Assembly (NCBI GenBank): GCA_002319915.1
Contig: DCFQ01000021.1
Location: 47,643 to 111,642, forward strand
Origin: Bacteroidales bacterium UBA1800
Lineage (GTDB): Bacteria; Bacteroidota; Bacteroidia; Bacteroidales; VadinHA17
Length of the DNA stretch: 64,000 nt
Direction of reading: 5' to 3'
The notes under the pieces are model-generated. The model was not told the origin of the DNA. It saw nothing but the letters and a program-made list of their open reading frames with translations, and searched no databases. Made by a program: the position numbers and the translations under genes. How positions within the stretch are numbered: position 1 is the stretch's first letter; each line of letters begins with the position of its first letter. Shown here piece by piece: positions 19,611-59,927 of this stretch.

Positions 19611-19650
19611 TGCTGGCAGGCGTATGGCGTCAGGCATCAGGTATCAGGAA
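19611..19650. repeat. solo heptad-periodic intergenic arm (CAGG every 7 nt)
   Basis: tggcagg cgtatgg cgtcagg catcagg tatcagg, located between glpK and glpF. Confidence 0.6.
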
Positions 19651-19674
19651 GAAAATGTTAATTAATTAACAACC

Positions 19675-21171
19675 TCAGTCTCCTCCCGAAGCCCAGACCT
19701 CAACACTGCGGATCGCACGATCCCATCCCCTGATATAGCTTTTCCTTGTGTCATCCGGCATCTTTGGATTGAATATCCGGTCGATCTGCCACTGCTTCCT
19801 AATCTCCTCGGTGCCATTCCAGTATTTCACGGCGATCCCGGCAAGATATGCTGCCCCGAGGGCGGTCGTTTCGGTAATCTTTGGCCGTACCACATTGGCA
19901 TTGAGGAGGTCGGACTGGAACTGCATCAGGCTGTTATTTACAGTTGCCCCTCCGTCAACGCGCAGCTCCTTTATTTCTATCCCCGAGTCCTTCTCCATTG
20001 CCTTCAGCACCTCGAGTGTCTGGAAGGCGATGCTGTCGAGGGCTGCCCTGGCTATATGGGAAGCCGTGGTCCCCCTGGTGAGGCCGACAATTGTGCCCCT
20101 TGCATGCTGGTTCCAGTGCGGCGCACCTAACCCTGCAAATGCCGGTACGAAGTAGACTCCCTCGCTGTCCTTTACTTTTGAGGCAAGTGCCTCGACATCA
20201 GCAGAACCCGCGATAACTCCCAGGCCGTCCCTGAGCCACTGGACTACCGCCCCGGCAATAAAAATACTGCCTTCAAGAGCATACCGTGTTTCATTGCCGA
20301 TACGCCAGCCTACGGTTGTGAGGAGATTGCTCCGGGACCTGATAGGCTTGTCGCCGATATTCATCATCATGAAACAGCCGGTGCCATACGTATTCTTGAC
20401 CATTCCCGGCTCGGTGCACATCTGCCCGAAAAGTGCAGCCTGCTGGTCCCCTGCAATTCCCGATATCGGGATGTCGGTGGCAAACTGTCCTACCGTACTC
20501 CCGTAAATGTCGCTCGATGACCTTACCAATGGGAGCATTGCAGCCGGGATCTTGAATATATCCAGCAGCTCTTCATCCCATTTAAGGGTATTTATATTGA
20601 ACAGCATCGTTCTCGATGCATTGGAGACATCCGTTATATGAAGCTCCCCGTTCGTCAGGTTCCAGATAAGCCATGAATCGACGGTCCCGAAAGCAAGCTG
20701 CCCTTTCTCCGCAAGCTTCCTTGCGTATTTGACGTTGTCGAGGATCCAGCGGATCTTTGTTGCCGAAAAATATGCGTCAATTATCAGCCCTGTTTTTTCC
20801 CGGATCTTGTCAGCCAGGCCATCGGCCTTCAGCCTGTCGCAGAATTCCGCCGTCCGCCTGTCCTGCCACACGATCGCGTTGCAAATCGGTTTGCCGGTGA
20901 TCCTGTCCCACACCACGGTTGTCTCCCTCTGGTTGGTGATCCCGATTGCAGTGATATCCGAGCTGCTCAGCCCTGCCTTTGCAATCGCCTCGGAGGCAAC
21001 TGCCGACTGGGTCGACCAGATCTCTTCAGCATTGTGCTCGACCCATCCCGGCTGGGGATAGATCTGGGTGAACTCCCGCTGGGAGGATGAGAATGGCAGA
21101 CCATCACGGTTAAAAACGATTGCGCGTGAACTTGTGGTTCCCTGGTCGAGGGCAAGGATAAAATCTTTCAT
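19675..21171 (-). CDS. glpK: glycerol kinase
   Basis: 498 aa. The N-terminus [16 protein letters not shown] and the FGGY-family layout are unmistakable. Confidence 0.95.
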
Positions 21172-21192
21172 ATTCTGTTATATTGAATTTTG

Positions 21193-22752
21193 TTACAGGT
21201 ATTTTTCAGCCAGAAGTGTGTAATCCCGCACCTGCTGTTCCTCCCAGCCGTTCCCGTACCCGAGCTCTTTCGCCATGATTTTTGCAACAATAGGGGCCAT
21301 TGCGATACTGCTCCCCGCATTCAGGAAGAGCGCCCTGGTCCTTCTCGAGAGCACGTCCTCCACTGTCAGCGGCATTTCATTGCGGCATATACAGACGATC
21401 TCCGCCCTGGTATAGGGAAGGTTCGGAACGAGTTGTTCCCCAAGCCCGTGATCGCCGCTTATCAATTTTTCGATCTCCGCAGCCCCTGACCCGTAAATCC
21501 TGAGCCTCATATCCTTCAGCCCTGGATCGGCAGAGCCAAGCTTCAATTCGCTGGTCACGCATCCCTTCTTCTCAAGCACTCCTGCCCTGATTGCCCTGTC
21601 GATCGTTTCTTCAGCCATGCGCCTGTAAGAGGTCCATTTACCGCCGATTATAGATAGCAGCCCCGAACGGGAAAGGGTTATTTTATGCCTTCGTGAGACT
21701 TCTTTTGTGGCCCCGGGGTTGTCAGGATTTGCTGCAAGGGGCCTCAATCCGGCGAATATGCTGAGGACATCTTCCCTTTCAGGGGGTCTTGTAAGATACT
21801 TTGCAGCAGTCCTCAGGATGAAGTCAATCTCTTCATCGAGGGCCCTTGGCTCAAGGGAAACCTCATCCACGGGAGTGTCGGTAGTCCCGACAACAACCTC
21901 TCCGTACCAGGGTATGGCAAACAGGACACGGCCGTCCTCTGTCTTCGGGATCATGATCGCTGATCCGCTGTCGAGGAACGACCTGTCAATCACGATATGG
22001 ACGCCCTGGCTGGGACGTATAGTCGGTCTTGATCCGGGATCATCCATCCTGTGGATCTCATCTGCAAAGACGCCCGTGGCATTAATCACGATCCGTGACT
22101 TCAGGTCGTAATCAGAATCCGCTATCAGATCGTGAACTTTCACCCCGGTTATCCTGCCATTCCCATCCTTCAGAAAACCGTATGCCCTGAAATAGTTCAA
22201 TACGATTCCACCTTGAGCTATGCAAGCCTCCGCAAGCGCCATTGCCATCCTCGAATCGTCAAACTGCCCGTCGTGGTAAACAATTCCGCCTTTCAATCCC
22301 TTCGTTTTCAGGTGGGGCAGCCTTTCGGCAGTTTTACCCCGGCTAAGGAAATAAGATCGTCCCAGGGAGAGCCTTCCCGCCAGCAGGTCATAGAATTTGA
22401 GTCCCACAGTATAAAGGATCACGTCCCATATGGTGTAAACAGGGATCACAAATTCCTGGTTTGCCGTCAGATGTGGAGCATTCCTGAGGATCAGGCCGCG
22501 TTCGTGGAGGGCCTCTTTAACAAGCAATATATCTCCCTGCGCCAGGTACCTGACTCCGCCATGGACCAGCTTTGTGCTTCTTGAAGAGGTTCCCTTGGCA
22601 AAATCAGACTGCTCGAAAAGGAGTGTCTTGTATCCCCTTGTAACCGAATCGAGTGCCACACCGAGACCGGTGGCGCCCCCGCCGATCACAATAACATCCC
22701 ACTGGTTGTTCAGGTTTTTCCGGAGGGTCTGGATCAGGTCATTCCGGTTCAT
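21193..22752 (-). CDS. glpD: FAD-dependent glycerol-3-phosphate dehydrogenase
   Basis: DVIVIGGGATGLGVALD dinucleotide fold and GlpD/GlpA-like length and order. The start is set at the internal MNRNDL (22752), because the ORF-track start adds 21 unlikely residues. Confidence 0.9.
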   Translation of the reverse strand: MNRNDLIQTLRKNLNNQWDVIVIGGGATGLGVALDSVTRGYKTLLFEQSDFAKGTSSRSTKLVHGGVRYLAQGDILLVKEALHERGLILRNAPHLTANQEFVIPVYTIWDVILYTVGLKFYDLLAGRLSLGRSYFLSRGKTAERLPHLKTKGLKGGIVYHDGQFDDSRMAMALAEACIAQGGIVLNYFRAYGFLKDGNGRITGVKVHDLIADSDYDLKSRIVINATGVFADEIHRMDDPGSRPTIRPSQGVHIVIDRSFLDSGSAIMIPKTEDGRVLFAIPWYGEVVVGTTDTPVDEVSLEPRALDEEIDFILRTAAKYLTRPPEREDVLSIFAGLRPLAANPDNPGATKEVSRRHKITLSRSGLLSIIGGKWTSYRRMAEETIDRAIRAGVLEKKGCVTSELKLGSADPGLKDMRLRIYGSGAAEIEKLISGDHGLGEQLVPNLPYTRAEIVCICRNEMPLTVEDVLSRRTRALFLNAGSSIAMAPIVAKIMAKELGYGNGWEEQQVRDYTLLAEKYL

Positions 22753-26434: not shown

Positions 26435-26522
26435 TTAACCGCAAAGGACACCAGGATGGCTCAAAGTACGCCAGGGCTGAATGCTGTTTTTACATCCTTG
26501 CGGGCTTTGCGTAATTCCGGTT
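26435..26522. repeat. intergenic imperfect-palindrome element (TTAACCGCAAAG type)
   Basis: ttaaccgcaaaggacacc ... ccttgcgggctttgcgtaattccggtt. The arms are of the same family as 27754 and 30488. Confidence 0.6.
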
Positions 26523-27753: not shown

Positions 27754-27869
27754 TTAACCGCAAAGGACGCAAAGTCCCTTAATCCCTTGTAGCAGACGCA
27801 AATCTCCATTTTGGGGATAGGAGCCAGACTTTGCGGTCTTTGCGCAAATTTTGGGGTCTTTGCGGTTAA
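27754..27869. repeat. intergenic hairpin element with TTAACCGCAAAG terminal inverted repeats
   Basis: Left end ttaaccgcaaaggacgcaaagtc; right end gactttgcggtctttgcg...tctttgcggttaa. It fills the gap between the lactonase start and the TIM-barrel gene stop. Confidence 0.75.
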
Positions 27870-30487: not shown

Positions 30488-30592
30488 TTAACCGCAAAGA
30501 GCGCAGTGAAGGTGCAAAGTGCGCAAAGGCAAATTGCTTAATATCTATTCTTTGCGAACTCTGCGAAGTAACTTTGCGAACTTAGCGGTTAA
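30488..30592. repeat. intergenic hairpin element with TTAACCGC terminal inverted repeats and 10-11-nt phased GCAAAG modules
   Basis: ttaaccgcaaagagcgcagtgaaggtgcaaagtgcgcaaagg / ctttgcgaactctgcgaagtaactttgcgaacttagcggttaa, with a loop of about 20 nt. Confidence 0.75.
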
Positions 30593-34026: not shown

Positions 34027-34174
34027 TACGCCCCCAAACCCCCTAAAGGGGGCTTTCTCTAATTGCTTAAACTTACTTTTACGCTACTATTGTTAGCTGC
34101 TTAACCGCCCTTCATGGGGCATCATTGTGCACGGTTCAAGCCCCACTTCAGGGGGGATGGGGGGCCATTCTGAG

Positions 34175-34207
34175 ACACAGAGGAGTCACGGAGGAGGCAC
34201 GGAGGGC
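34175..34207. repeat. solo arm of CACAGAGG/CACGGAGG 11-nt phased modules
   Basis: acacagaggagtcacggaggaggcacggaggg. Confidence 0.6.
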
Positions 34208-41395: not shown

Positions 41396-41467
41396 AGATT
41401 ATAAAAATGCTGGCGTCAAGATAGAAAATTATCCCAAATCACAAAAACTATCGGAAGGATTAAATTG

Positions 41468-41541
41468 CTGCTGGTTGCCTGTTCCTTGTTGCTTGTTGTT
41501 CTGCCTTAACCTGCAACCAGTAACCAGTAACCAGCAACCAA
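41468..41541. repeat. heptad-periodic hairpin element (GGTTGC... / CAACCAG TAACCAG TAACCAG CAACCA)
   Basis: Left arm ctgctggttgcctgttccttgttgcttgttg; right arm ctgcaaccagtaaccagtaaccagcaaccaa. Confidence 0.65.
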
Positions 41542-41560
41542 TTATCCAGCAACTAACTCT

Positions 41561-41638: not shown

Positions 41639-41700
41639 GCGTCAGGCGAAAGGCGTCAGGTGCCAGGCTGTCTGAAACCTGAAGCCTGAAACCTGAAACC
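41639..41700. repeat. heptad-periodic element (GTCAGGC... / CTGAAAC CTGAAGC CTGAAAC CTGAAAC)
   Basis: gcgtcaggcgaaaggcgtcaggtgccaggc tgt ctgaaacctgaagcctgaaacctgaaacc. It abuts the fumarase stop codon. Confidence 0.65.
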
Positions 41701-48834: not shown

Positions 48835-48900
48835 GAAAATATTTTGCAGATATAAAAAAACATCGTTTCTTTGCATCCGCATTTAAAAAGTTCTTTAAAC

Positions 48901-48975: not shown

Positions 48976-49007
48976 AAAATATTACGGAAATAATTAATTA
49001 ATCAGGA

Positions 49008-49262
49008 ATGGCAAACCATAAGTCGTCGGAGAAGCGCATCAGGCAGATAAAAACTAAGAAGGAAAGCAACAAGTATTATGCAAAAACCATGCGTAATGCT
49101 CTCAAGACTATCAGAACAAATACTAACAAGGAAGAAGCTACAGCGCTTCTACCCAAGATGAATTCAATGCTCGACAAGCTGGCAAAGAAGAACATCATCC
49201 ATAAGAACAAGGCTTCAAACCTTAAGTCTTCGCTGGTTAAGCATGTCGACGGCCTGAAATAG
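49008..49262 (+). CDS. rpsT: 30S ribosomal protein S20
   Basis: 84 aa. MANHKSSEKRIRQ... is the canonical S20 N-terminus. Confidence 0.95.
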   Translation: MANHKSSEKRIRQIKTKKESNKYYAKTMRNALKTIRTNTNKEEATALLPKMNSMLDKLAKKNIIHKNKASNLKSSLVKHVDGLK

Positions 49263-49285
49263 GGCTGTATAACAAATTATATTCC

Positions 49286-49311
49286 AAGGGCTCCTGAACG
49301 GGGCCTTTTTT
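49286..49311 (+). terminator. rho-independent terminator after rpsT
   Basis: aagggctcc-tgaac-ggggcctt stem (2 G.U pairs) followed by a T-run. Confidence 0.65.
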
Positions 49312-49378
49312 GTATCATGCCCCCTGATCCCTGGTTTACTAACCAAGAGCGTAATTTCTGACTTTGTACATCGAACCA

Positions 49379-49545
49379 GCCTTTGTGCAACTTTGAGCTG
49401 CACTTTGTGTACCTTTGTGTTTCAAACAATTACCTGCAACCACAAAGGTTCACTAAGGTCCCGATAGCTATCGGGATCACAAAGGTAACCAAAGCAACTG
49501 CATTACGGAATTGCAATTCTGTGCCTCCTCCGTGCTCTCTGTGTA
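49379..49545. repeat. composite intergenic element: CTTTGTG/CACAAAG hairpin + 18-bp perfect palindrome + CTCCGTG/CTCTGTG arm
   Basis: ctttgtgcaactttgagctgcactttgtgtacctttgtg ... cacaaaggttcactaagg; TCCCGATAGCTATCGGGA at 49459-49476; gtgcctcctccgtgctctctgtgt at the 3' end. Confidence 0.75.
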
Positions 49546-49588
49546 ACTTTTTATTCTTAACTTTATCCTGATTCATCTCTCTCGCTGC

Positions 49589-50272
49589 ATGTCACTTAAA
49601 ATCACAGACTGGGCTGTTGAGGACAGACCCAGGGAAAAACTGATCGCCAAAGGTATGTCGAGCCTCAGCGATGCCGAATTACTGGCAATCCTCATCAGCT
49701 CGGGCACAAGGAACAAATCGGCTGTCGATCTTGGAAGGGAGCTTCTGGGGCTGGCAGGGAACAACCTTAATTCGCTTGGAAAGCTCTCGGTCGCCGAACT
49801 GAGAAAGATCCGCGGAATCGGCCCGGCGCGGGCTGTCATAATCTCAGCCGCTCTTGAGCTCGGCCGACGCAGGAAACTCGCTGAACTTCCCGAGGTAAGC
49901 CAGATCAAATGTTCAAGGGATGTGGCTGATATTTTCCAGCCGGTGCTCTCCGATCTTGCCCATGAGGAGTTCTGGGTCCTCTTCCTCAACAGGTCGAACA
50001 GGGTGACCGGAAAGATGAAGATCAGCCAGGGCGGAGTGAGCGGAACCGTTACGGATGTGAGGATCATAATGAAACAGGCTGTTGAGTTCCTGGCCTCCGG
50101 CATCATCGTCTGCCATAACCATCCTTCAGGCAACCTGAATCCGAGTGAGTCTGACTCGAAGATCACCCACAAGATCCGTGAGGCAGGGAATCTCCTGGAT
50201 ATTCAGCTCCTCGACCATATCATCATTTCCGGGATGGATTACTTCAGCTTCGCTGATAACGGGATGATCTGA
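49589..50272 (+). CDS. radC: RadC-family JAB-domain protein
   Basis: 227 aa with an N-terminal HhH region (RPREKL...LSDAELLAILI.SG) and the JAMM motif HNHPSG. Confidence 0.9.
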   Translation: MSLKITDWAVEDRPREKLIAKGMSSLSDAELLAILISSGTRNKSAVDLGRELLGLAGNNLNSLGKLSVAELRKIRGIGPARAVIISAALELGRRRKLAELPEVSQIKCSRDVADIFQPVLSDLAHEEFWVLFLNRSNRVTGKMKISQGGVSGTVTDVRIIMKQAVEFLASGIIVCHNHPSGNLNPSESDSKITHKIREAGNLLDIQLLDHIIISGMDYFSFADNGMI

Positions 50273-50282
50273 GTTGGAAAAG

Positions 50283-50372
50283 GGTCACACAGAGGCTCCG
50301 GAGGAGGCACAGAGTGGCACAGAGATTCAGTGCTCTCCGTGTCTTCTCCGTGTCCCGATAGCTATCGGGATC
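50283..50372. repeat. CACAGAG/CGGAGG hairpin element ending in the 18-bp perfect palindrome
   Basis: cacacagaggctccggaggaggcacagagtggcacagag / tgctctccgtgtcttctccgtg; TCCCGATAGCTATCGGGA at 50353-50370. It overlaps the last ~15 codons of folK. Confidence 0.75.
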
Positions 50373-50863
50373 GGTGTAATAAAATTCCTCACTTCGCTCT
50401 TATCCCTGCACTCTTCCAGTAACTCAGAAAATGTCCGGTTCAATACAGGGTGCATTTCCCCGGGGATCAGATCGCACAACGGGACCAGGACAAACCTTCT
50501 TTCCTGGATGAGAGGATGAGGAACCACAAGCTGCGGCTGGTCAATTACCATGTTGCCATAAAGTAATATGTCGATATCGATGGTCCTGGAGGAATAGCGC
50601 TCGCTTCCCCTCACCCTGCCGAGTTCCGTCTCGATACCCTGGAGTGTTTCGAGCAATTCCTCCGGTACCTGCCGGCAGATTGCCTTTGCGACCATATTCA
50701 GGAACCTTGCACTGCTCTCAAATCCCCATGGCTCCGTTTCATAGATCTTTGATACTGCAGCAATTTCTCCCGTAACGGAACCGATCCGCTCAAGAGCCCT
50801 CCTGAGATTATCCTCCCTGTTACCCAGGTTTGAACCAAGACCGAGAAATACTTCTGCCTCCAT
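50327..50863 (-). CDS. folK: 2-amino-4-hydroxy-6-hydroxymethyldihydropteridine diphosphokinase (HPPK)
   Basis: GLGSNLGNRE, YETEPWG, DIDILLYG, PHPLIQERRFVLVPLCDL. The C-terminal ~15 aa (ITPIPIAIGTRRRHGEH) are encoded by the repeat element. Confidence 0.9.
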   Translation of the reverse strand: MEAEVFLGLGSNLGNREDNLRRALERIGSVTGEIAAVSKIYETEPWGFESSARFLNMVAKAICRQVPEELLETLQGIETELGRVRGSERYSSRTIDIDILLYGNMVIDQPQLVVPHPLIQERRFVLVPLCDLIPGEMHPVLNRTFSELLEECRDKSEVRNFITPIPIAIGTRRRHGEH

Positions 50864-50963
50864 GAAACCAAACTTTTGATAAAATTATTAATTCTTTTCC
50901 TCAACAATTTAATCACTTTGTTTTTTATATATTTAAAACCCATTAAATTAAAGCATTCCCGAA

Positions 50964-52733
50964 ATGAAAGATTTCCTTAAATACACGCTCGCCACAATAG
51001 TAGGAATTATCCTGGCCACGATCCTTTTTTTCGTCATATTGCTTTTTACCCTCAGTGCAGCAGTTGCATCGGGAGATAAGCCGGTGGCTGTCGCCGAGAA
51101 TTCCGTCCTTGTGCTTAAGGCAGGGGTCGAGATACCCGACCGAGCAAATCCGGGGCCATTTTCCGGCATCGATCTTCTTAACCTGGAACCTTCATCCATT
51201 GCGGGATTGAACGAGATCCTCGCCGATCTGAAGAAGGCAGAAACCGACAGCAGGATCAAAGGAGTGCTGATCGAGAACGGGCTTGCAACTTCCGGGTGGG
51301 CAACGGCGGAAGAGATCAGGGATGCGCTGACGGAATTCAGAAAGTCAGGCAAATTCGTCATAGCCTGGTCGGATTATGTTCTTTTACAGCAGGGATATTA
51401 TCTATCGACCGCAGCAGGCAAAATATATATCAGCCCTGAATCGACCGTTGATTTCAAGGGGCTCAGCGGCGATGTGCTCTTTTACAAGGGGGCGCTCGAC
51501 AAGCTGGGTGTGCAGGTACAGGTTACCAGGCACGGGAAATTCAAGGGTGCCGTGGAGCCATATATCCTCGACAGGCTCAGCAAGGAAAACGAAGAGCAGA
51601 TTAAAAGCTATGTCGGATCGATATGGGACCATGTGATTGAAAACATTTCCCTGTCGAGGAACCTTTCCCCTGAACGCCTTCGAAATATTGCGGACAGCCT
51701 CACTGCATATTCCGCAAAAGGGGCCTTCAGGAACAGGCTTGTCGACGGACTGATCTACAGGGATGCCCTTATCGACAGCCTCAAAACCCTTTCCGGGTTG
51801 AAAACAGACGACAAGCTTAACCTTGTGCCTATGACTAAATATACCAGGGTGCCTGATCCTAAAAGAATGGTCTCGGCAAGAAACAAGATTGCCGTGATCT
51901 TTGCCCAGGGAACTATTGTAATGGGAAAGGGAAATGAGACCAATATCGGGGGAAACTCATACGCTGAGCTTATCAGGAAGCAGAGGAAGGACTCCTCCAT
52001 TAAAGCCATTGTGCTAAGGGTCAATTCACCCGGCGGCAATGCCATCGCATCTGACATTATCTGGCGTGAAGTGGAGCTGACTGCGAAAGAAAAGCCTGTC
52101 GTCATATCCATGGGGAACTATGCCGCTTCGGGGGGTTATTATATAGCAGCCCCCGGAACGACTATAATCGCAGACCCCACAACAATTACGGGTTCGATAG
52201 GTGTCTTCGGATTGCTTCCCAACACTGCAGATCTATTTAACAAGAAGCTCGGTATTTCGACACAGGCGGTGAACACTAACAAGAACTCAGATTTCCCCTC
52301 AGTTTACAGGCCGATGACGGGTTACGAAAAGGATGTCATGCAGATCAATATTGATAACTTTTACAGCAGCTTCATTAACAAGGTTGCAGCAGGAAGGAAG
52401 CTATCACCGGCAAGGGTCGACAGCATCGCCCAGGGAAGGGTATGGAGCGCCCCCAAAGCCCTGGAGATAGGGCTGGTTGACAAGATTGGCGGGCTAGACT
52501 CTGCCGTGGCCGAAGCCGCGAGGCTCGCCGGCATCCGGACATATTCACTCAGGGAGCTCCCTGTCCCTGAAGATCCCTACACAAGGTTGATATCAATGCT
52601 CAGCAACGAGGTCAGAATGCGAATCCTGAACAATCATCTTGGTGAATACAGGAATGTCGTTGAGGAACTGCAGAATCTTGAAGAGCTTTCCGGGGTCCAG
52701 GCAAGGATGCCATATTTCATTGAAGTTCACTAA
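50964..52733 (+). CDS. sppA: signal peptide peptidase SppA, 67K type
   Basis: 589 aa with an N-terminal TM helix and two ClpP/crotonase-like halves (VLRVNSPGGNAIASD, MGNYAASGGYYIA). Confidence 0.9.
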   Translation: MKDFLKYTLATIVGIILATILFFVILLFTLSAAVASGDKPVAVAENSVLVLKAGVEIPDRANPGPFSGIDLLNLEPSSIAGLNEILADLKKAETDSRIKGVLIENGLATSGWATAEEIRDALTEFRKSGKFVIAWSDYVLLQQGYYLSTAAGKIYISPESTVDFKGLSGDVLFYKGALDKLGVQVQVTRHGKFKGAVEPYILDRLSKENEEQIKSYVGSIWDHVIENISLSRNLSPERLRNIADSLTAYSAKGAFRNRLVDGLIYRDALIDSLKTLSGLKTDDKLNLVPMTKYTRVPDPKRMVSARNKIAVIFAQGTIVMGKGNETNIGGNSYAELIRKQRKDSSIKAIVLRVNSPGGNAIASDIIWREVELTAKEKPVVISMGNYAASGGYYIAAPGTTIIADPTTITGSIGVFGLLPNTADLFNKKLGISTQAVNTNKNSDFPSVYRPMTGYEKDVMQINIDNFYSSFINKVAAGRKLSPARVDSIAQGRVWSAPKALEIGLVDKIGGLDSAVAEAARLAGIRTYSLRELPVPEDPYTRLISMLSNEVRMRILNNHLGEYRNVVEELQNLEELSGVQARMPYFIEVH

Positions 52734-52736
52734 GAC

Positions 52737-53828
52737 ATGGCTAACGGAAGACTCTGGCCGCTTTACCCCTTCTCCATCGTCTACAGGCTGATTACCGACA
52801 TCAGGAATATTCTCTACGATACCGGTATCCTTCATTCAGTGAAATTTGAAATACCTGTGATCTGCATCGGGAATATCACTGTGGGCGGAACCGGCAAAAC
52901 ACCGCACACGGAGTACATCGCCGGCCTGCTGAAAGATGAATTCCACACCGCCGTTCTGAGCAGAGGATATGGGAGAAAGACCAGGGGGTATCTCGAGGTG
53001 GGCAGTGATAGTGCTGCAAACGCTTCCGGCGATGAGCCCCTACAGGTCGCCCTCAGTTTCCCGGATGTCCTTGTGGCGGTCGACGGCGACAGGGTCCACG
53101 GGGTGAATAATATCCGGAGCAGACATCCTGAGACCGGAGTTATTCTGCTTGACGATGCATTTCAGCACCGGAGGATAAGGGCAGGGTTGACAATCCTTCT
53201 CACCGATTATAACCGGCTGATGACAAGGGATTTCATTCTCCCTTTCGGGCGTTTGCGTGAAAAACGGGCAAATGCAGCCAGGGCTAATATAATAATCGTC
53301 ACAAAATGCCCCCCGGATATGGGAAGAGCAGAAATGGAAAAGCTGCAACACGAACTGAATACCTGTCCTCAACAGGAGCTTTTCTTCACAACCCTGACGT
53401 ATTCCTGTCCAAAACCGGTATATCCCGGTAATTCAAGGGAGCTGAGCCTGGCGGAGGATGCATCGGGGAAGCAGGGTGCAGTCCTTGTTACAGGAATCGC
53501 TTCCCCCGGACCATTAAAGCTCTATCTTCAGAAATATTTCGGGGAGATATCACATATCGGTTTCCCTGATCACCATTATTACAGCCCCGGGGACATTAAG
53601 AGAATATCTGTTGCCTTCAAAAACCTGAAATCTCCCGGGAAACTGATCCTTACAACTGCGAAGGATGCGGTCAGGTTAAGGGAATTTGCTAATATTGCCC
53701 CCGAAATAAAGGAAGCTTTTTTCTATGTGCCCGTAAGCGTGATCTTTCTGGGCGGCGGGAAACAGGAATTTGACAACATCATTTACACTTATGCTGGAAA
53801 AAGTAATAAAAACCACCCAGTTCCTTAA
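52737..53828 (+). CDS. lpxK: tetraacyldisaccharide 4'-kinase
   Basis: 363 aa with the P-loop GNITVGGTGKTP and SRGYGRK. Confidence 0.9.
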   Translation: MANGRLWPLYPFSIVYRLITDIRNILYDTGILHSVKFEIPVICIGNITVGGTGKTPHTEYIAGLLKDEFHTAVLSRGYGRKTRGYLEVGSDSAANASGDEPLQVALSFPDVLVAVDGDRVHGVNNIRSRHPETGVILLDDAFQHRRIRAGLTILLTDYNRLMTRDFILPFGRLREKRANAARANIIIVTKCPPDMGRAEMEKLQHELNTCPQQELFFTTLTYSCPKPVYPGNSRELSLAEDASGKQGAVLVTGIASPGPLKLYLQKYFGEISHIGFPDHHYYSPGDIKRISVAFKNLKSPGKLILTTAKDAVRLREFANIAPEIKEAFFYVPVSVIFLGGGKQEFDNIIYTYAGKSNKNHPVP

Positions 53829-54600
53829 ATCTAACGGGATAATCGATCCGGTTGCCGGGATTGTCCTGGGGACAGGCCTTGGCGGGCTTGCCGCAAAAAT
53901 TGAGAACCCTCTCATAATCGATTACAGGGATATTCCGAATTTTCCGGTTTCCACAGTCGAAGGGCATGAGGGCAGGCTCATCTACGGCGATTTCGGGGGA
54001 AGGAAGATAGTTGCCATGAAAGGGAGGTTCCATTACTATGAAGGATACTCCCCGGAACAGATAGCACTTCCTGTCAGGGTCCTGAAATACCTGGGAATCA
54101 AATCGTTGTTCCTTTCGAATGCAGCCGGGGGTGTGAATCCGTCTTTTGAGATTGGGGACATTATGATCATCACCGATCATATAAACCTTATGCCAAATCC
54201 CCTTGCCGGGTCAAATGATGAAAGGATCGGCCCTCGTTTCCCGGATATGAGTGCATCATACGATATAAACCTGATAAACAAGGCGATCGAAATTGCCGGG
54301 CAGAATGGGATAAGAGTCCGCAAGGGAGTTTACCTCGGTACCACGGGACCAACATTCGAGACGCCTGCAGAGTATAGGTACTTCAGGGTCATCGGTGCGG
54401 ATTCGGTCGGGATGTCGACGGTGCCGGAGGTGATCGTCGCACGCCACATGGGTCTTTCTTGCTTTGCCGTAAGCATCATAACTGACCTGGGAGTGGAGGG
54501 GAAGATCGAGTACACCACCCACAGGTCGGTCCAGGCCGAAGCTGCAAAGGCAGAGGCCCGGATGACGGTGATAATGACGGGGCTTATATCATCGTTGTGA
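53791..54600 (+). CDS. purine nucleoside phosphorylase (trimeric PNP family)
   Basis: GIVLGTGLGGL, STVEGHEGRL, GRFHYYEGY, GMSTVPEV. The start is set at MLEKVIK and overlaps the lpxK end. Confidence 0.85.
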   Translation: MLEKVIKTTQFLKSNGIIDPVAGIVLGTGLGGLAAKIENPLIIDYRDIPNFPVSTVEGHEGRLIYGDFGGRKIVAMKGRFHYYEGYSPEQIALPVRVLKYLGIKSLFLSNAAGGVNPSFEIGDIMIITDHINLMPNPLAGSNDERIGPRFPDMSASYDINLINKAIEIAGQNGIRVRKGVYLGTTGPTFETPAEYRYFRVIGADSVGMSTVPEVIVARHMGLSCFAVSIITDLGVEGKIEYTTHRSVQAEAAKAEARMTVIMTGLISSL

Positions 54601-54610
54601 CTCTTGTTTT

Positions 54611-55078
54611 TACTACAAAGGATCACAAAGTTCTCCACTAAGTCGCACTAAGGCTCATAGAACTACACGCTTAATTCCGGATTTCAAATGTTCAACGTTG
54701 AAATTAATTAAAAGCCCTAATCTGCATCCTGACAACTTCAAATAAGTTAGAATCTGGGCCAGGTGAATATCTGCTAACGCTTCTATTGATTTCACCTCAA
54801 CAATAATACTGTCTTCAACTAACAAATCCAGTCAATAGCCTGCTTCTAATCTGACAGATCTGCAAATTAACGGTAATGGAATTTGTTTGTTGACTTTAAC
54901 ACCTGAATGCTCTAATTCATAAAATAAACATTCAACATAAGCACTCTCCAATAGTCCTGGTCCCAGGGCAGAATGGATTCTAAATTAACAATCCAAAATA
55001 TTCTTAAACAGCTTTTCAATGTCCATATCAAAATTATTTTCTTTGTGCGACTTTGTGAGAACCTTAGTGACCCTTCAT
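54611..55078. mobile_element. hairpin-flanked cassette: ~37-nt imperfect inverted arms (CACAAAG/CACTAAG modules) enclosing a decayed GxxExxY ORF
   Basis: The left arm acaaaggatcacaaagttctccactaagtcgcactaagg is collinear with the reverse complement of the right arm (gaagggtcactaaggttctcacaaagtcgcacaaag). The interior is AT-rich. Mobility is inferred, not shown. Confidence 0.4.
54655..55074 (-). pseudogene. GxxExxY-family (PD-(D/E)XK nuclease-like) pseudogene
   Basis: The minus strand reads ...ENNFDMDIEKLFKNILDC*FRIHSALGPGLLESAYVECLFYELEHSGVKVNKQIPLPLICRSVRLEAGY*LDLLVEDSIIVEVKSIEALADIHLAQILTYLKLSGCRLGLLINFNVEHLKSGIKRVVL*. The in-frame stops are TAA (54985-54987) and TGA (54832-54834). Confidence 0.8.
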
Positions 55079-55108
55079 GGTAAATCTCAATTCCATGAAT
55101 TGAAGTTT

Positions 55109-57484
55109 CTAGTTCCTGATTACCGTACAAACCTTTTTCCAGTGGCGGGTTTTTCCCGTGTCGTCAAAAACCTTGATCAGCAGAACATATATCCCTGTTT
55201 CAACCAGCGACCCGTCATCAGCAGTACCATCCCATACAACCGACGCCTCGCTGCCAGCAAAAAGGTTATCTGTTAATTTTTTCACAATAGAACCGGTCTC
55301 ATCGAAGATCCACACCAACACCACATTCCCGTTCCCGATCAGTTTAATATCCAATACCAGAAAATCCTGGTTCCCGTCATTGTCAGGGGTTATGAAGGCA
55401 GAAGAGAAAACAACGGCATCATTCTCCACCGGTTTCTCGGAATAGACGGAATTCACGGCCCCGGGCGTTCCCCAACCGCATGACTCCGAAGCAGAGTGCC
55501 AGTACTCCCCGCATTCCGAGGAACTTTCCGGCCTGACCTTCTCCAGCGAAATTCCTTCATTATCCTTCAGCAGCGGGAACTGAAGCTTCTCCGAATAGAC
55601 AATCTCATCTATCACGTCAAGCTTCCTGCCGAGCAGGATCAGGTGGCCATTGTCATCCGGCATAGATGGCAAAGACGGGATCTGGAAGATCCAGTCGCCG
55701 TCTCCTGAAAAAAACCTGCTGATCACACTTTTCCTGTCGGTGGTGATCGCATACAGTGCCCCCGGGAGGATGCACCTGTGTTCTGCCGACAGTGCGACCG
55801 TCGCCGAGGTATCCCCGGTTTCCTGGTTTACAGATGCCAGGCGCAGGCCGGCTGCATCAATGATCTTGCCGGAACAGTTTGCCAGTTCAATGAAATCGGG
55901 TTCACCCGGCAGCGGGTTGAAGAGGAGCTCATTGAACCGGAGATCCCCCCTGGCCGGGGGAACCGGCATGCCGAAACCAAAACAGTCCCGGTCAGCCGGG
56001 TTGCCCGAAAAGTCCTTCACCCCTGTCCCAAGGCAAACCTGGTATATTTTGCCGGTATTGAAGGCGCCTGTCGTTGTGATCTCAAATTCCCTGAACAGCC
56101 TGTCCACGACTTGAATGCCATTGATGCTCGGGTTTCCGATATTCACCTCATCCTGCCTGGCGGGAAGGCCTGTCACTGTTTCGGATAATCTAAGGGTGAC
56201 CGTGACCGAATCTTCAGGAAAGACATTTTCAATTCCCCTGAACGAAAAGTCGGGGTTATACCCCCGGACCGAGCTGACCCTCCCTGGGGTTCCGCCTTCA
56301 GCTGTCTTTGAGGCTTTCCAGTTCTCCCCACCCGAGAATGGCAGCCCGTTATTGATGATCTCGAGCGACCATCCTCCCTCAGCTTTCAGATCATCATTGT
56401 ACCAGTCTGATGAATACTCGATGCCGTCGATAAGCTTCCCGTGACCATCAAGGAGGGCCAGGACCCTGCCTCCGTCGGTAAGCGCAGGGAATGACCCGAA
56501 ACCTGCAACCGCTCCCCAGCTTCTGAAAAGGGCCGTATCGGAAGCCTGGCACAGGATCATGTACTGACCGGCCCTGAGGGTGACTCCTGGAAACGGGTAC
56601 TCCTGCGACTGGGTTGCCAGGTGCCAGCTGCCCAGGGGGATGTCAGACTTTGAAGCATTGAATATCTCCAGGTACTCCTTCCCGGGAAGAGAGACGGCTG
56701 GCTGGGGCCTGGCCATTATCTCGGAAAAAACTACATCCCCCGGAAATACCTCAGAGGTTTCCGGAGGGTCAGGGCCGTCACCGAAAAACCCGGTGATCTC
56801 AAGATCATCGAACCACAGGAGCCTGTCGCGAGAGGAGGTGTACCTGTAGGAAACTATGAACCAGCCTGCGTTTGTAAGCGAAGGATCATGATCCGAGGAT
56901 ATGCCCAGGGGGTTGCCATTGCTGTCATATACGGTCAGTGTCCAGTCGCCAGCAGCCGTCCTCATGATCTTTATGTTTGCCGGTTCTTCCGTGCCGATAT
57001 CCGTCTGCCAGTTTATCCGGCTTTTGACAACGGTTATGAACCGGCCCTGCTCCACCCTCCAGATCCTGAGAGTGTCGTCACTGCCGTCCTGGTTGACACC
57101 CACAGCGAATCCTGAAGGTTTTTCAACATTCTGAATGCTTCCGGCACCGATATCGGACATAAGATAAACGGTCCAGTTATTCGTGGAGGAGGGATCGGTC
57201 CCATACCTGAGGCGGAAGCTCCAGGTCGTAGTCCCCTGGCCGGGGCGAAGGTTCATCAGCGATAATCCTGCAAGGTCGAACCCGGCTTCGGGATTATCAA
57301 AGGAGTGATGCATGGAAAATGCGCCGGAAACTGGGCTGACATTGTCGGCATTCCAGCGGTTTTCCGGACTCTGGGTCCAGGGTGACAGGTCACCCGTCTC
57401 AAAGTCATCCATGATCTGGCCATATCCTGCTCTTTGCATCCACCAAAACAGGATATTTAAAGCCAGCAAAATAACTTTATTCAT
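55109..57484 (-). CDS. secreted protein with two lamin-tail (LTD) domains and a T9SS type-B C-terminal sorting domain
   Basis: 791 aa with a signal peptide. LTD-like segments are VVFSEIMARPQP...EYLEIFN and LRFNELLFNPLPGEPDFIELAN. The C-terminus ITPDNDGNQDFLVLDI...VWDGTADDGSLVETGIYVLLIKV matches the gliding/T9SS type-B pattern. Confidence 0.7.
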   Translation of the reverse strand: MNKVILLALNILFWWMQRAGYGQIMDDFETGDLSPWTQSPENRWNADNVSPVSGAFSMHHSFDNPEAGFDLAGLSLMNLRPGQGTTTWSFRLRYGTDPSSTNNWTVYLMSDIGAGSIQNVEKPSGFAVGVNQDGSDDTLRIWRVEQGRFITVVKSRINWQTDIGTEEPANIKIMRTAAGDWTLTVYDSNGNPLGISSDHDPSLTNAGWFIVSYRYTSSRDRLLWFDDLEITGFFGDGPDPPETSEVFPGDVVFSEIMARPQPAVSLPGKEYLEIFNASKSDIPLGSWHLATQSQEYPFPGVTLRAGQYMILCQASDTALFRSWGAVAGFGSFPALTDGGRVLALLDGHGKLIDGIEYSSDWYNDDLKAEGGWSLEIINNGLPFSGGENWKASKTAEGGTPGRVSSVRGYNPDFSFRGIENVFPEDSVTVTLRLSETVTGLPARQDEVNIGNPSINGIQVVDRLFREFEITTTGAFNTGKIYQVCLGTGVKDFSGNPADRDCFGFGMPVPPARGDLRFNELLFNPLPGEPDFIELANCSGKIIDAAGLRLASVNQETGDTSATVALSAEHRCILPGALYAITTDRKSVISRFFSGDGDWIFQIPSLPSMPDDNGHLILLGRKLDVIDEIVYSEKLQFPLLKDNEGISLEKVRPESSSECGEYWHSASESCGWGTPGAVNSVYSEKPVENDAVVFSSAFITPDNDGNQDFLVLDIKLIGNGNVVLVWIFDETGSIVKKLTDNLFAGSEASVVWDGTADDGSLVETGIYVLLIKVFDDTGKTRHWKKVCTVIRN

Positions 57485-57510
57485 GCAGCGGGACAGAAAG
57501 AAAAAAAAGT

Positions 57511-57518
57511 TACTTTTG
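57511..57518 (+). promoter_or_regulatory. candidate Bacteroidota -7 promoter box (TAnnTTTG) for asd
   Basis: TACTTTTG lies 58 nt upstream of the asd ATG. No clear -33 TTTG partner was seen. Confidence 0.25.
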
Positions 57519-57575
57519 ACTTCTTAAAACTGAAAGTAAATTTAAGTAATTACTTTAATCTTAACAAATTAAATC

Positions 57576-58565
57576 ATGAAAATTGCGGTTGTTGGTGCGA
57601 CCGGGCTGGTCGGCCGGACAATGATCAAGGTTCTTGAAGAAAGGAATTTCCCCGTTACCGAGCTTATCCCTGCAGCATCTGAGAATTCCGTCGGGAAGGA
57701 GATCCTGTTCAAAGGGAAGGGTGTGAAGGTAAGAAGCGTCACGGATACGGTAAATGCAAAGCCTGTTTTCGCGATATTTTCGGCGGGGGCATCCGTTTCG
57801 AAAGAATGGGCGCCTGCCTTCGCCGCGAACGGGACCGTGGTGGTGGATAACTCTTCAGCCTGGAGGATGGATATAAATGTCCCTCTCGTTGTCCCTGAGA
57901 TCAACAGCCATGCAATAAGGAAGGGAGACAGGATCATTGCAAATCCCAACTGCTCGACGATCCAGATGGTAATGGCACTCGCACCGCTTCACAGGAAGTA
58001 CAGGATCAGGCGCCTTGTGATCGCAACATACCAGTCGGTGACTGGCACCGGTGTGAAAGCCGTAAAGCAGATGGAGAATGAACGCGCAGGTATAAAAGGT
58101 GAAATGGCCTACGCCCACCCTATCGACATGAACTGCTTTCCCCACGGAGGAACATTCCAGACCGATGGCTATACCACCGAGGAACAGAAGCTTATCGATG
58201 AAACCCGCAAGATACTCGAAGACCCCACGATCATGGTAACTGCAACAGTAGTGAGGATCCCCGTGGTGGGAGGCCATTCCGAAGCTGTGAACGCCGAGTT
58301 TGAAAATGACTTCGATATGGACGAGGTACGGTCGCTTATCGCCGGATTCCCGGGGAACGTGGTGTATGATAATCCAGCAGAGGCAAAATACCCGATGCCG
58401 CTCATATCGTACAACAGGGATGAGGTGTTTGTCGGAAGAATAAGAAGGGACTTCTCAAGGGAGAAATGCCTCAACCTCTGGATCGTTTCTGATAACATCA
58501 GGAAAGGAGCTGCAACCAATGCCGTCCAGATCGCAGAGTACATGGCAGCGCACGATCTCTGTTAA
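57576..58565 (+). CDS. asd: aspartate-semialdehyde dehydrogenase
   Basis: 329 aa with MKIAVVGATGLVG and the active-site region IANPNCSTIQMV. Confidence 0.95.
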   Translation: MKIAVVGATGLVGRTMIKVLEERNFPVTELIPAASENSVGKEILFKGKGVKVRSVTDTVNAKPVFAIFSAGASVSKEWAPAFAANGTVVVDNSSAWRMDINVPLVVPEINSHAIRKGDRIIANPNCSTIQMVMALAPLHRKYRIRRLVIATYQSVTGTGVKAVKQMENERAGIKGEMAYAHPIDMNCFPHGGTFQTDGYTTEEQKLIDETRKILEDPTIMVTATVVRIPVVGGHSEAVNAEFENDFDMDEVRSLIAGFPGNVVYDNPAEAKYPMPLISYNRDEVFVGRIRRDFSREKCLNLWIVSDNIRKGAATNAVQIAEYMAAHDLC

Positions 58566-58570
58566 TAGTT

Positions 58571-58609
58571 CTCCGTGCCGCTCTGTGTCTGTCTCAGTGC
58601 TCTCCGTGT
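58571..58609. repeat. solo arm of CTCCGTG/CTCTGTG modules between convergent asd and hflX
   Basis: ctccgtgccgctctgtgtctgtctcagtgctctccgtgt. Confidence 0.6.
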
Positions 58610-58613
58610 ACCA

Positions 58614-59831
58614 TCAGGCAGGGGGTGTACTGGACGGCACATCAAACAAAAAATCATTAAATGGATACCTGGTTACGTGTATCCTCTTCACCTCCTCGTA
58701 GAGAAGCCTCCTGAACTCATCGAGGTTCTCCCTGGTGATTGCTGAGATGAAGATCGTCTTATGATGCTTGTCCGAGGCCATCCATGATCTCCTGAGGTCG
58801 TCGAGCGAATAGTTCTCCTTTTTCACGGGGGTCAGGTCATCCTCATCCTTTGCCGAATAAGTAAACGCGTCAATCTTGTTAAAGACAAGTATCATGGGTT
58901 TACCGGATGAACCAAGCTCCTTTAATGTCTCGTTGACAACACTGATCTGGTCTTCGAACCCGGCATGGGATATATCCACTACATGCAGTAGCAGATCCGA
59001 ATCCCTGACCTCGTCAAGGGTCGATTTGAACGATTCTACAAGATCATGGGGCAGCTTCCTGATAAAGCCCACTGTATCCGAAAGGAGGAATGGCAGGTTC
59101 CCTATGACCACTTTCCTTACAGTTGTATCGAGGGTGGCGAAGAGCTTGTTTTCGGCAAACACGTCCGATTTGCTCAGGAGGTTCATTATTGTCGACTTGC
59201 CGACGTTGGTATACCCGACAAGGGCCACCCTCACCATCTTCCCCCTGTTTTTGCGCTGGGTGGTCATCTGGATGTCGATCTTCTTCAGCTGGTCCTTGAG
59301 GAGGGAGATCCTGTCCCTGATAATTCTCCTGTCGGTCTCGATTTCCGTTTCGCCCGGGCCCCTCAACCCGATGCCTCCCCTCTGGCGCTCCAGGTGGGTC
59401 CACATCCTTGTAAGGCGAGGGAGCATGTACTGAAGCTGTGCAAGCTCGACCTGGGTTCTTGCATACGAGGTTCTTGCACGGGTGGCAAATATATCGAGTA
59501 TAAGGTTTGTCCGGTCGAGCACCCGGCAGCTAAGTGCATTCTCAATATTCCGAAGCTGGCTGGGGGAAAGCTCGTCATCGAAGATCGCCAGGTCGATCCC
59601 GTTTTCTGTCACGAAGCCGGCTATCTCTGAGATCTTCCCGGATCCCACAAAAGTCCGGGGATCCTGCATATCAAGTTTCTGGAGAAATGTTCTTACCGGC
59701 TCGGCGCCTGCGGTTTCAGCAAGGAATGCGAGTTCTGACAAGAAATCCCGCGCCTGGTCCTCTTCCTGCCCGGGGTAGACCAATCCAACCAGGATTGCCT
59801 TCTCTCCCCTTCTTTCAGTATTGATCATCAA
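58614..59831 (-). CDS. hflX: GTPase HflX
   Basis: 405 aa with an HflX N-domain, G1 GYTNVGKST, DTVGF and NKID. Confidence 0.9.
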   Translation of the reverse strand: MMINTERRGEKAILVGLVYPGQEEDQARDFLSELAFLAETAGAEPVRTFLQKLDMQDPRTFVGSGKISEIAGFVTENGIDLAIFDDELSPSQLRNIENALSCRVLDRTNLILDIFATRARTSYARTQVELAQLQYMLPRLTRMWTHLERQRGGIGLRGPGETEIETDRRIIRDRISLLKDQLKKIDIQMTTQRKNRGKMVRVALVGYTNVGKSTIMNLLSKSDVFAENKLFATLDTTVRKVVIGNLPFLLSDTVGFIRKLPHDLVESFKSTLDEVRDSDLLLHVVDISHAGFEDQISVVNETLKELGSSGKPMILVFNKIDAFTYSAKDEDDLTPVKKENYSLDDLRRSWMASDKHHKTIFISAITRENLDEFRRLLYEEVKRIHVTRYPFNDFLFDVPSSTPPA

Positions 59832-59840
59832 ATACTCTGT

Positions 59841-59927
59841 GTTACCGGTTGCCTGTTTCCGGTGATGGTGTGATCCGGTCCTGCAGTAAACTGATGATCA
59901 TCTGCCAACCGGCAACCGGCAACCCGG
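59841..59927. repeat. heptad-periodic hairpin element (CCGGTTG... / CAACCGG CAACCGG CAACCC)
   Basis: gttaccggttgcctgtttccggt ... gccaaccggcaaccggcaacccgg. Confidence 0.65.

Follow-up and report, generated by a model that had tools for sequence, protein, structure and literature searches.

Arrays of several short binding sites are familiar from the ends of the Mu and Tn7 transposons, the heptad operators of omega repressor, parC-type iterons and the spaced GAG triplets bound by TRAP, and heptanucleotide tandem repeats are familiar from Cyanobacteria as short tandemly repeated repetitive (STRR) sequences. Dispersed short repeats that accompany a gene are described as repetitive extragenic palindromic (REP) sequences and their hairpin doublets (REPINs), with the REP-associated tyrosine transposases (RAYTs; Bertels and Rainey 2011, PMC3116915; bioRxiv 10.1101/2021.07.10.451892). 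The protein family PF05635 is named for open reading frames (ORFs) within 23S rRNA intervening sequences and resembles the Avd proteins of diversity-generating retroelements (PMC10053308), and heptamer arrays such as the TAACTGA repeats and other long simple sequence repeats are described as lacking a known mechanism (PMC4679880). The window analysed here is a 64,000-nt stretch of Bacteroidales bacterium UBA1800 (contig DCFQ01000021.1, positions 47,643–111,642), whose intergenic regions contain arrays of short words; one class of these belongs with genes of the GxxExxY family (PF13366), which is given as of unknown function (PMC3424549).

The arrays fall into two classes. Class I consists of 7-nt words of the form C-R-C-N-R-A-G with free spacers, four to an arm, following a fixed outer terminus; its arms are the inverted, inward-pointing flanks of GxxExxY genes in many phyla, and the window contains one gene-bearing module, whose gene is a pseudogene, besides about nine derivatives of three types that have no gene. 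Class II consists of strict tandem 7-nt units and is separate from class I. The class I arrays have a slightly better than even chance of being cognate protein-binding arrays of a REPIN/RAYT-like element, selfish or domesticated. The observations at hand concern their architecture, their association with and orientation around the genes, conservation of the words, co-variation of array type and protein, filled and empty sites, nesting, tandem duplication and purifying selection. All results are computational, and the relatives compared are metagenome assemblies throughout; loci numbered L are related or metagenome contigs in which gene calls are heuristic.

Class I words run from the outer end inward to the loop or gene, behind a T-rich outer terminus that ends in TTAAC, TTTAC or AACTTA / TGTTA. 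The three types are as follows.

CGCAAAG type: spacers of 2 / 3–6 / 2 nt (17 of 17 arms), terminus TTAAC.
CACAAAG type (with CACTAAG and CACGAAG): spacers of 3 / 5 / 3 nt, terminus TTTAC or TTAAC.
CACAGAG type (with CACGGAG and CACTGAG): spacers of 3 / 4 / 3 nt, terminus AACTTA or TGTTA.

Between 88 and 92% of words match the type of their own arm, the spacers hold 0.1–0.4 bits of information, and word position 4 is free. Loops of the hairpin copies are often short (7–30 nt where measured, and 20–21 nt for the majority of CGCAAAG elements). With words beginning at 0, 10, 22 and 32 nt, the four sites would lie approximately along the same face of B-DNA. The original prediction, a single family of helically phased words with a fixed period, holds in part: phasing fits the spaced-word class and fails for the 7-nt class, the spacing actually ranges over 9–13 nt (patterns 9/11–13/9, 10/12/10 and 10/11/10), and the one family gives way to two classes with different rules, words spaced by ~10 nt and strict 7-nt tandem units.

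The gene-bearing module of the window has two arms of the CACAAAG type.

54611..54657, plus strand: left arm, TTTTTAC, then TACAAAG-GAT-CACAAAG-TTCTC-CACTAAG-TCG-CACTAAG; it starts 10 nt past the stop codon of a purine-nucleoside-phosphorylase-like gene.
55041..55079, minus strand: right arm, from the outer end TTTAC CATGAAG-GGT-CACTAAG-GTTCT-CACAAAG-TCG-CACAAAG; an A-rich leader follows, then the ATG of the GxxExxY pseudogene.

The ORF between them (54655..55038, minus strand) matches TIGR04256 / PF13366 in a profile search (E = 5.9e-32, 110.5 bits, cut-off 35). Its identity to the intact orthologues found there in related genomes is 76%, and two in-frame stop codons make it a pseudogene. The window copy therefore lacks an intact frame; the catalytic residues are kept in the orthologues. 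Ten related species have an intact 123-aa orthologue at this site, flanked by the same arms and located between two convergent genes, the phosphorylase-like one and one for a 791-aa protein; one of these orthologues (P0001) matches PF13366 at 8.8e-40. Similar word-like flanks had been pointed out around GxxExxY ORFs, and the arms at 54611–54657 and 55041–55078 indeed bracket such a gene. Across 59 species the orthologous convergent site contains the GxxExxY module in 11, a four-helix-bundle module in 3, and nothing in another 11, in which 2–20 nt separate the two stop codons; the remaining species have short intergenic regions, some with other gene-less arrays. Filled and empty sites, which the original prediction proposed to compare, are thus both present among these species. 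Reduced forms also occur there, as a 49-nt heptad mini-hairpin (L006, L009) or a solo arm (L078), and in L021 the GxxExxY module lies beside a solo heptad arm.

The association extends well beyond the relatives of the window. In a set of 80 diverse metagenome GxxExxY loci (GC 0.32–0.68; contigs scanned with a family-consensus query), forward words occur at 19.4 per kb in the 130 nt upstream of GxxExxY and reverse words at 18.3 per kb in the 100 nt downstream, compared with 1.0 forward words per kb inside the ORF, about 1.8 per kb in the far flanks and 1.2 per kb expected from base composition; 49 of 77 loci have at least three forward words upstream. A description of this association was not found in the literature. 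As a test for read-through expression, the module and its upstream neighbour were compared in orientation and are co-oriented in 44 of 56 cases, not clearly above the level generally known among bacterial neighbours.

Array type and protein vary together. All four combinations of word positions 2 and 5 are present, each across the entire GC range, and the type is therefore not a composition effect. Of 43 loci, 33 share their word type with the locus of the nearest-neighbour protein, where chance would give 11.4 (permutation p = 2e-4). One GxxExxY subfamily (L124, L118) lies between CACAGAG arms that have the AACTTA terminus, another (L114, L131, L120) between CGCAAAG arms with GTTAA, and the window's own (L094, L021 and others) between CACAAAG arms; in the low-GC contigs of these (L124/L118, L114/L131/L120, L094) the terminus and spacer lengths equal those of the gene-less copies in the window. 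Proteins are 74–76% identical within an arm type and 50–66% between types. A prospective check (L334–L341) yielded three further CACAGAG-subfamily proteins on Bacteroidales-labelled contigs, all with AACTTA-CACAGAG arms and 3/4/3 spacers; these count as about one extra independent case because all three lie 3' of a purE-like (AIRC-domain) gene at one conserved site. In the N-terminal helix, residues follow word position 5, with K/H/R and D accompanying A, and E/Q/G and G accompanying G, and alignment columns 13, 14, 18 and 109 (K8 and D12 in P0001 numbering) have mutual information with that position above a shuffle null. These helix residues may be a specificity determinant, or may reflect phylogeny alone.

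The GxxExxY family comprises 17,449 clusters at 50% identity (E <= 0.001) in many phyla. E27, D67, E77-x-K79 and Q91-x-x-x-Y95 are nearly invariant in the orthologues and in the family alignment. The protein is a PD-(D/E)XK nuclease by family, and its catalytic residues are intact in the orthologues. A structure model built from an alignment of diverse representatives has a pLDDT of 96.2, and its nearest, weak matches in a fold search are Cas4 SSO0001, lambda exonuclease and the nuclease domain of AdnA. No solved GxxExxY structure was found by sequence search, and the PADLOC defence-system profiles give faint Cas4 similarity only. At the orthologous site, selection on the gene is purifying (pN/pS 0.19), and the more the hosts have diverged, the more the gene has too (r = 0.69). 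As to the kind of cognate protein that had been proposed, a PD-(D/E)XK candidate is found beside the window arms and no ORF examined matched an HUH protein as a RAYT would. Some family members of ~275–295 aa have two tandem GxxExxY domains (P0121–P0123, P0126, P0127 and others), a fusion that hints at a working unit of at least a dimer. The model also weakly resembles XisH (PDB 2okf; fold search rank 17, probability 0.18), and the distribution of XisH/XisI matches that of heptamer repeats according to the TAACTGA-repeat paper (PMC4679880); the resemblance and this match may be coincidence.

The four-helix-bundle protein at the orthologous site (L013, L012, L071) belongs to PF05635 and is related to PDB 2RLD. 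Independent PF05635 loci (L173–L180) have GCGGATT / TCGGATT heptads upstream and their complements downstream in every one, such that PF05635 genes are flanked by inverted GGATTKC heptads in the same layout as the GxxExxY arms. A link to four-helix-bundle ORFs had likewise been pointed out, and it is borne out in these loci.

The window arrays exceed chance where genes are absent and the base composition is not AT-rich. With a loose definition of an array (a 7-mer present three or more times on one strand, with no more than one mismatch and a spacing of 7–13 nt), the 5,335 nt of intergenic backbone DNA contain 12 arrays, where 0.8 are expected and no simulation gave more than 3. The counts are 5 for backbone coding DNA (3.4 expected), 3 for AT-rich intergenic DNA (1.1 expected) and 1 for AT-rich coding DNA (2.75 expected); neither genes nor the AT-rich locus depart from chance. 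A strict four-word pattern (C[AG]CN[AG]AG, spacers 2–3 / 3–6 / 2–3 nt, at most two substitutions) finds eight arms, all in backbone intergenic DNA, against a mean of 0.00 across 100 Markov simulations. Tandem Repeats Finder independently reports arrays at 19626, 34172, 41465, 41507, 41672, 50306, 50334 and 59906, and an inverted-repeat finder confirms the arms 27754/27850, 30483/30575, 41461/41508, 49403/49438 and 59827/59907. The original prediction of non-random arrays confined to the intergenic backbone is thus upheld: its words are present in all 16 of the coordinate ranges that it gave, and the enrichment is found in backbone intergenic DNA alone, not at composition-level frequency nor equally in genes or the AT-rich locus. 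A GGCT-phased array that it placed at 48286–48313 is supported by no test.

The closest relatives of the window are uncultured Bacteroidales metagenome-assembled genomes with RadC proteins 78–85% identical (the RadC search covered species representatives, with the window's own genome outside that set and the nearest RadC 85% identical). In a related set of 80 Bacteroidales loci of 20 kb each, intergenic DNA has 1.17 arrays per kb and ORFs have 0.195, and 79 of 84 four-word arms are intergenic. The gene-less class I elements of the window are listed below.

30488..30592: complete CGCAAAG hairpin in a divergent promoter region, with TTAAC and four words (30493–30528), a 21-nt loop, and four reverse words and GTTAA (30550–30587); z = -5.3.
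27754..27869: CGCAAAG hairpin between two genes of one minus-strand operon, with both termini (TTAAC/GTTAA), two words in the left arm and a complete right arm (27829–27864); z = -3.3.
26435..26522: decayed CGCAAAG element, TTAAC-CGCAAAG intact at the left, the other words degenerate and the right terminus gone; z = -1.3.
49381..49419, minus strand: solo four-word arm of the CACAAAG type, inner side toward the S20 gene.
49436..49494, plus strand: partial CACAAAG/CACTAAG arm, split by the 16-nt palindrome CCCGATAGCTATCGGG (49460–49475).
49518..49545, minus strand: three-word CACGGAG/CACAGAG solo arm upstream of radC.
50283..50353: CACAGAG hairpin immediately past the radC stop codon, with a forward arm of four words (50288–50324), an 8-nt loop and, running into the 3' end of the folK ORF, a short reverse arm (CTCCGTG x2); z = -3.5.
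58571..58608, minus strand: solo four-word CACGGAG/CACTGAG/CACAGAG arm filling the 48-nt gap between convergent asd and hflX; z = -0.7, no folding.
34172..34207, plus strand: three-word CACAGAG/CACGGAG arm with period 11, adjoined by a separate GC-rich hairpin at ~34216–34243.

Both hairpins and solo arms occur, as had been described: inverted arms are found, folding is stronger than in shuffled sequences for the hairpin-type copies (z = -2.7 to -5.3), and solo arms have no such signal. The description of a shared architecture with divergent sequence also stands, the window elements having only 14–16 nt in common. Three copies had been thought to share the termini TTAACCGC...GCGGTTAA; two of them (27754–27869 and 30488–30592) have both, and the third (26435–26522) is decayed on the right. 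A sigma-70 promoter scan gives promoter-like counts at chance. A reading by eye of the CTTTGNG words as Bacteroidetes -33/-7 promoters was rejected, as the spacing does not fit and CACAGAG-type words have no TTTG.

Two side observations concern the surroundings of these copies. The perfect palindrome CCCGATAGCTATCGGG is present three times in the window (49460–49475, 50354–50369 and, with one mismatch, 45878–45893) against 0.00 expected, and also in L035 (585–600) and L068 (2273–2288), always in intergenic DNA; both perfect window copies touch word arrays, one lying in the central spacer of an arm and the other immediately behind a hairpin. It appears to be a small palindrome dispersed in its own right. 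The radC gene is flanked by outward-facing arrays (49518–50353, arrays included): the arm upstream of it is reverse and the one downstream is forward, contrary to the cargo layout. In L061 (9833–10760) radC lies between inverted TTACTGA / TAATCAG heptad arrays.

Several features of class I resemble those of an element. Contigs labelled by NCBI as Ignavibacteria or Ignavibacteriaceae (L082–L092; labels as deposited) encode, at unrelated sites and between the same CACNAAG arms, proteins ~80% identical to the window type, which may point to transfer between phyla. Modules are found in tandem, with two GxxExxY genes in L088 (2321–3212), a further case in the downstream flank of L094, and three four-helix-bundle genes in L173 (1501–2764); whole arms are likewise repeated, with three copies of a 46-nt arm in L080 (4944–5122) and others in L064 (10339–10777). 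These tandem copies point to unequal recombination or end-to-end insertion. In L338/L340 (1030–1740) a CACAGAG module lies between the apparent arms of a CGCAAAG element (TTAAC...GTTAA; the downstream CTTTGCG-GTTAA is degenerate) and thus appears to be nested in it; L336 and L118 likewise have TTAAC-CGCAAAG words upstream of such a module. The nested subfamily is the one at the conserved site downstream of the purE-like (AIRC-domain) gene, in several Bacteroidales contigs.

Class II in the window is represented by three hairpins or paired arrays and one solo array.

41461..41544: heptad hairpin, (GGTTGCT-like)n, a 10-nt loop and (CAACCAG / TAACCAG)n; z = -3.7.
41639..41700: CAGG heptads (41639–41668) adjoining CTGAAAC x4 (41672–41700), the arrays partly complementary; z = -3.9.
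59827..59937: heptad hairpin, CCGGTTG ... CAACCGG x3, with a 49-nt loop; z = -2.7.
19611..19650, plus strand: solo heptad array TCAGGNA x3–5 between glpK and a glycerol-facilitator gene; z = +1.1, no folding.

These are tandem heptanucleotide repeats both by Tandem Repeats Finder (19626, 41465, 41507, 41672 and 59906) and by the array test. L010, L015 and L025 have hairpins related to that at 59827..59937, and there, as in the window, they lie ~10 kb downstream of radC. The window units CAACCAG, CAACCGG, CTGAAAC and xCAGG equal none of CCCCAGT, TTGGTCA, CAACAGT and TAACTGA; the window heptads also differ from GGATTKC, and the window has no PF05635 gene. Among at least 120 viral contigs with (CGGATTK)3 and 33 with AACCAG heptads, no four-helix-bundle or GxxExxY gene lies within 250 nt, and the window's class II heptads are therefore given no gene family. 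The (CGGATTK)3 contigs (L214–L333, from IMG/VR) have a median GC of 0.62, and many of their arrays fall in long ORFs by heuristic calls that are unreliable at such GC. Tandem units of 7, 8, 9 or 12 nt with many unrelated sequences are common in the related loci. At the 3' end of radC (~10687–10760 in locus coordinates) nine loci (L010, L011, L014, L015, L018, L019, L020, L025 and L064) have an 8-nt array with a GTCTTGCR-like unit, where the window has its CACAGAG hairpin; these arrays fill the convergent gap between radC and folK. The unit is uniform within each array and varies among species, which is concerted evolution typical of slippage. The default reading is that the window's class II may be repeats maintained by slippage, and a parallel with the four-helix-bundle modules is only a lead.

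The arrangement of two arms around a loop or ORF could instead be read at the RNA level, as arms that pair in read-through transcripts to form a long stem around the ORF, like 23S rRNA intervening sequences excised by RNase III, with gene-less hairpins as stabilising or processing stems in 3' untranslated or intercistronic regions and the protein link secondary. This is unlikely, although the arrays are three times denser between convergent genes (2.9 per kb) than between tandem (0.96) or divergent genes (1.1), modules begin a few nucleotides past the host stop codons with no room for a promoter between arm and ATG, the hairpin copies fold, the element at 27754–27869 lies within one operon, and PF05635 takes its name from ORFs of just such intervening sequences. 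The two arms of one element are no more alike at the positions that pairing would hold together than unrelated arms of the same type (spacer identity 0.34 versus 0.39; agreement at word position 4 0.46 versus 0.54), and the central spacers of the two arms of CGCAAAG hairpins are often unequal in length. In a gene-less CGCAAAG hairpin orthologous in four species, a manual count gives ~7 of 56 word columns as variable versus ~12 of 18 spacer columns. Solo arms neither fold nor have a strand bias relative to host genes (24:20 downstream, 12:9 upstream). With the words kept, the pairing not kept and no strand bias, these results argue against selection of the stem as such and favour recognition of every single word by its sequence; they give no support to the RNase III processing once suggested. 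One and the same 7-nt word persists in different phyla and over GC 0.32–0.68, which a double-strand-specific RNase would not be expected to require; copies are also found in divergent promoter regions (30488–30592; L002 3117–3210), and a search of the whole window with Rfam 15 at the gathering score finds only tRNA-Glu and tRNA-Ala, the arrays matching no RNA family. That the arrays are intrinsic (Rho-independent) terminators is scarcely credible: many copies are hairpins just 3' of stop codons, but the T-run precedes the stem and an A-run follows it, the reverse of a terminator, none of 22 terminator-like sites in 41000–60500 contains an array, the S20 gene has its own such site (49286–49308) upstream of and separate from the arrays, and solo arms and divergent-promoter copies exist. 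The earlier view that the arrays are not simply terminators is thus well founded, as none fits the pattern of a stem plus a T-run.

Slippage could give rise to simple sequence repeats at gene ends with no cognate factor, like long simple sequence repeats or the cyanobacterial heptanucleotide repeats. The strict tandem arrays of unrelated units in the related loci, the 8-nt radC arrays with their species-specific uniform units, the tandem copies of whole arms (L080, L064), the heptamer arrays reported in Bacteroidetes, Cyanobacteria and Beggiatoaceae (PMC4679880) and the wide occurrence of heptad arrays with no four-helix-bundle gene nearby are all consistent with this, and it is a serious explanation for the window's class II only. 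As an account of the whole it is quite improbable, since class I has the same word with free spacers recurring at independent sites in different phyla, a constant four words per arm, type-specific termini and spacer lengths, and words that point inward on both sides of GxxExxY genes. Conventional miniature inverted-repeat transposable elements (MITEs), moved by an ordinary transposase encoded elsewhere and with the GxxExxY and four-helix-bundle genes as passenger cargo, would have inverted termini (some end in TTAA here), filled and empty orthologous sites and apparent nesting of one element in another. They are nonetheless a very improbable explanation: the copies are not near-identical, no target-site duplication is seen, neither in the window nor beside the modules examined was a transposase gene noticed, and cargo and arm type co-vary tightly across phyla, unlike random capture of cargo.

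Protein-binding arrays, one of the ideas in the original prediction, are the best reading for the ~10-nt class, where words are kept, spacers drift and the type tracks the protein subfamily. A full module consists of a T-rich terminus with TTAAC, TTTAC or AACTTA, four C-R-C-N-R-A-G words, the 123-aa GxxExxY gene, four reverse words and the reverse terminus. Each word would be a sequence-specific site for one subunit of the cognate GxxExxY protein, a dimer would occupy each word-spacer-word pair, and the two dimers of an arm would lie on the same face of the duplex. The arm type would be set by word positions 2 and 5, the spacer lengths and the terminus, with a separate protein subfamily reading each type. 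The hairpins without a gene and the solo arms would then be non-autonomous partners or relics that last at gene ends, like REPINs and REP singlets in relation to RAYTs, and the nuclease may mobilise or maintain the arms or regulate itself through them. Binding, its stoichiometry and any cleavage or mobility are thus proposed from the pattern of the arrays.

A number of results weigh against this reading. Co-variation of word type and protein clade is also expected from simple co-inheritance of a gene and its flanks, the case for binding is drawn from sequence, and several of the same-type examples are orthologues at one conserved site and hence non-independent. The 123-aa protein is a nuclease core without an obvious separate DNA-binding domain. 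No GxxExxY coding remnant is present in 60 gene-less arms, which are therefore not simply decayed modules. Near-identical dispersed copies are not seen, and with only 14–16 nt shared among window elements recent copy-and-paste mobility is without support; nor is a target-site duplication evident when filled and empty sites are compared. The four-helix-bundle family has the same layout without a known catalytic activity, which argues for a common role (e.g. regulation or RNA handling) over nuclease-driven transposition. Heptad arrays are mostly gene-less, and 0 of 117 (CGGATTK)3 arrays in viral contigs lie within 250 nt of a four-helix-bundle gene (with a profile from one subfamily).

The genes of the window include SusC/SusD, GldK-like, glpK/glpD, fumA, sppA, S20, radC and folK. 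Positions 1–19000 have a GC content of 0.32–0.44, and the remainder is near 0.5. This AT-rich block is a polysaccharide-utilisation locus with SusC/SusD, FecR, alpha-L-fucosidase, two FAD oxidoreductases, an M24 peptidase and an MFS transporter, every gene being on the minus strand; it is without word arrays, and its composition suggests horizontal acquisition.

Class I explains conspicuous intergenic repeats of uncultured Bacteroidales that would otherwise be taken for terminators or noise. It also ties GxxExxY, a large family of unknown function, to a searchable DNA signature, inward C-R-C-N-R-A-G arrays with type-specific geometry, which makes binding or cutting by the protein, its specificity and the movement of arrays testable questions. 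The same logic is suggested for the four-helix-bundle (Avd-like) proteins, heptad repeats and rRNA intervening sequences, and if binding is programmable through the two word positions, pairs of protein and array may be of practical use. Arrays with a cognate flanked gene are dispersed repeats of a kind already known, and there is a substantial chance that they form a new class of element. A broader and more tentative proposal is that GxxExxY and its word arrays constitute a previously unrecognised, phylum-spanning DNA element, self-propagating or domesticated, in which a minimal Cas4/RecB-like nuclease would recognise and cut or synapse four-word arrays on either end of its own gene and at hundreds of gene-less hairpins, with specificity set by two word positions and the N-terminal helix, and PF05635 with heptads would be a second, parallel class. 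If true, this would be the first mechanism for the origin of heptanucleotide repeats and rRNA intervening sequences.

Compared with known systems, the heptanucleotide repeats of Cyanobacteria, Beggiatoaceae and Bacteroidetes share with class II an intergenic, tandem and species-specific 7-nt unit, sometimes in long runs; the window units are not the published ones and several form inverted pairs, and class I words are separated by spacers rather than tandem. The 23S rRNA intervening sequences with a PF05635 ('S23p', Avd-like) ORF have a small ORF of the same family inside inverted repeats (as in L013 and L173–L180), an insertion-like module with the ORF in the loop of a hairpin. The modules here, however, lie between protein-coding genes and have tandem GGATTKC heptads as inverted repeats, and the window has other heptads and no gene of that family. 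The binding arrays of transposon ends, operators and iterons offer an analogy, with several short identical sites at a set spacing and orientation, cooperative binding of an oligomer and spacers without information, although the GxxExxY and four-helix-bundle proteins are outside those families. The closest parallel is with REPIN/RAYT. The arrays had been called unlike REP, and in the unit, the protein and the similarity of copies this stands: the unit is four 7-nt words with unconstrained spacers instead of a 20–40-bp palindrome, the protein is a 123-aa PD-(D/E)XK nuclease (PF13366) or PF05635 instead of a Y1/HUH (IS200/IS605-like) transposase, the copies in the 64-kb window are not a near-identical population, and protein relatives of ~80% identity are found in another phylum by NCBI labels. 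The organisation, in contrast, closely matches: a small gene lies within inverted copies of a short repeat, gene-less doublets and singlets at gene ends outnumber the genes, distinct repeat types are paired with distinct protein subfamilies within one genome, and the gene is at a conserved site, mostly vertically inherited and under purifying selection, such that GxxExxY at its resident site resembles RAYT genes more than ordinary insertion sequences.

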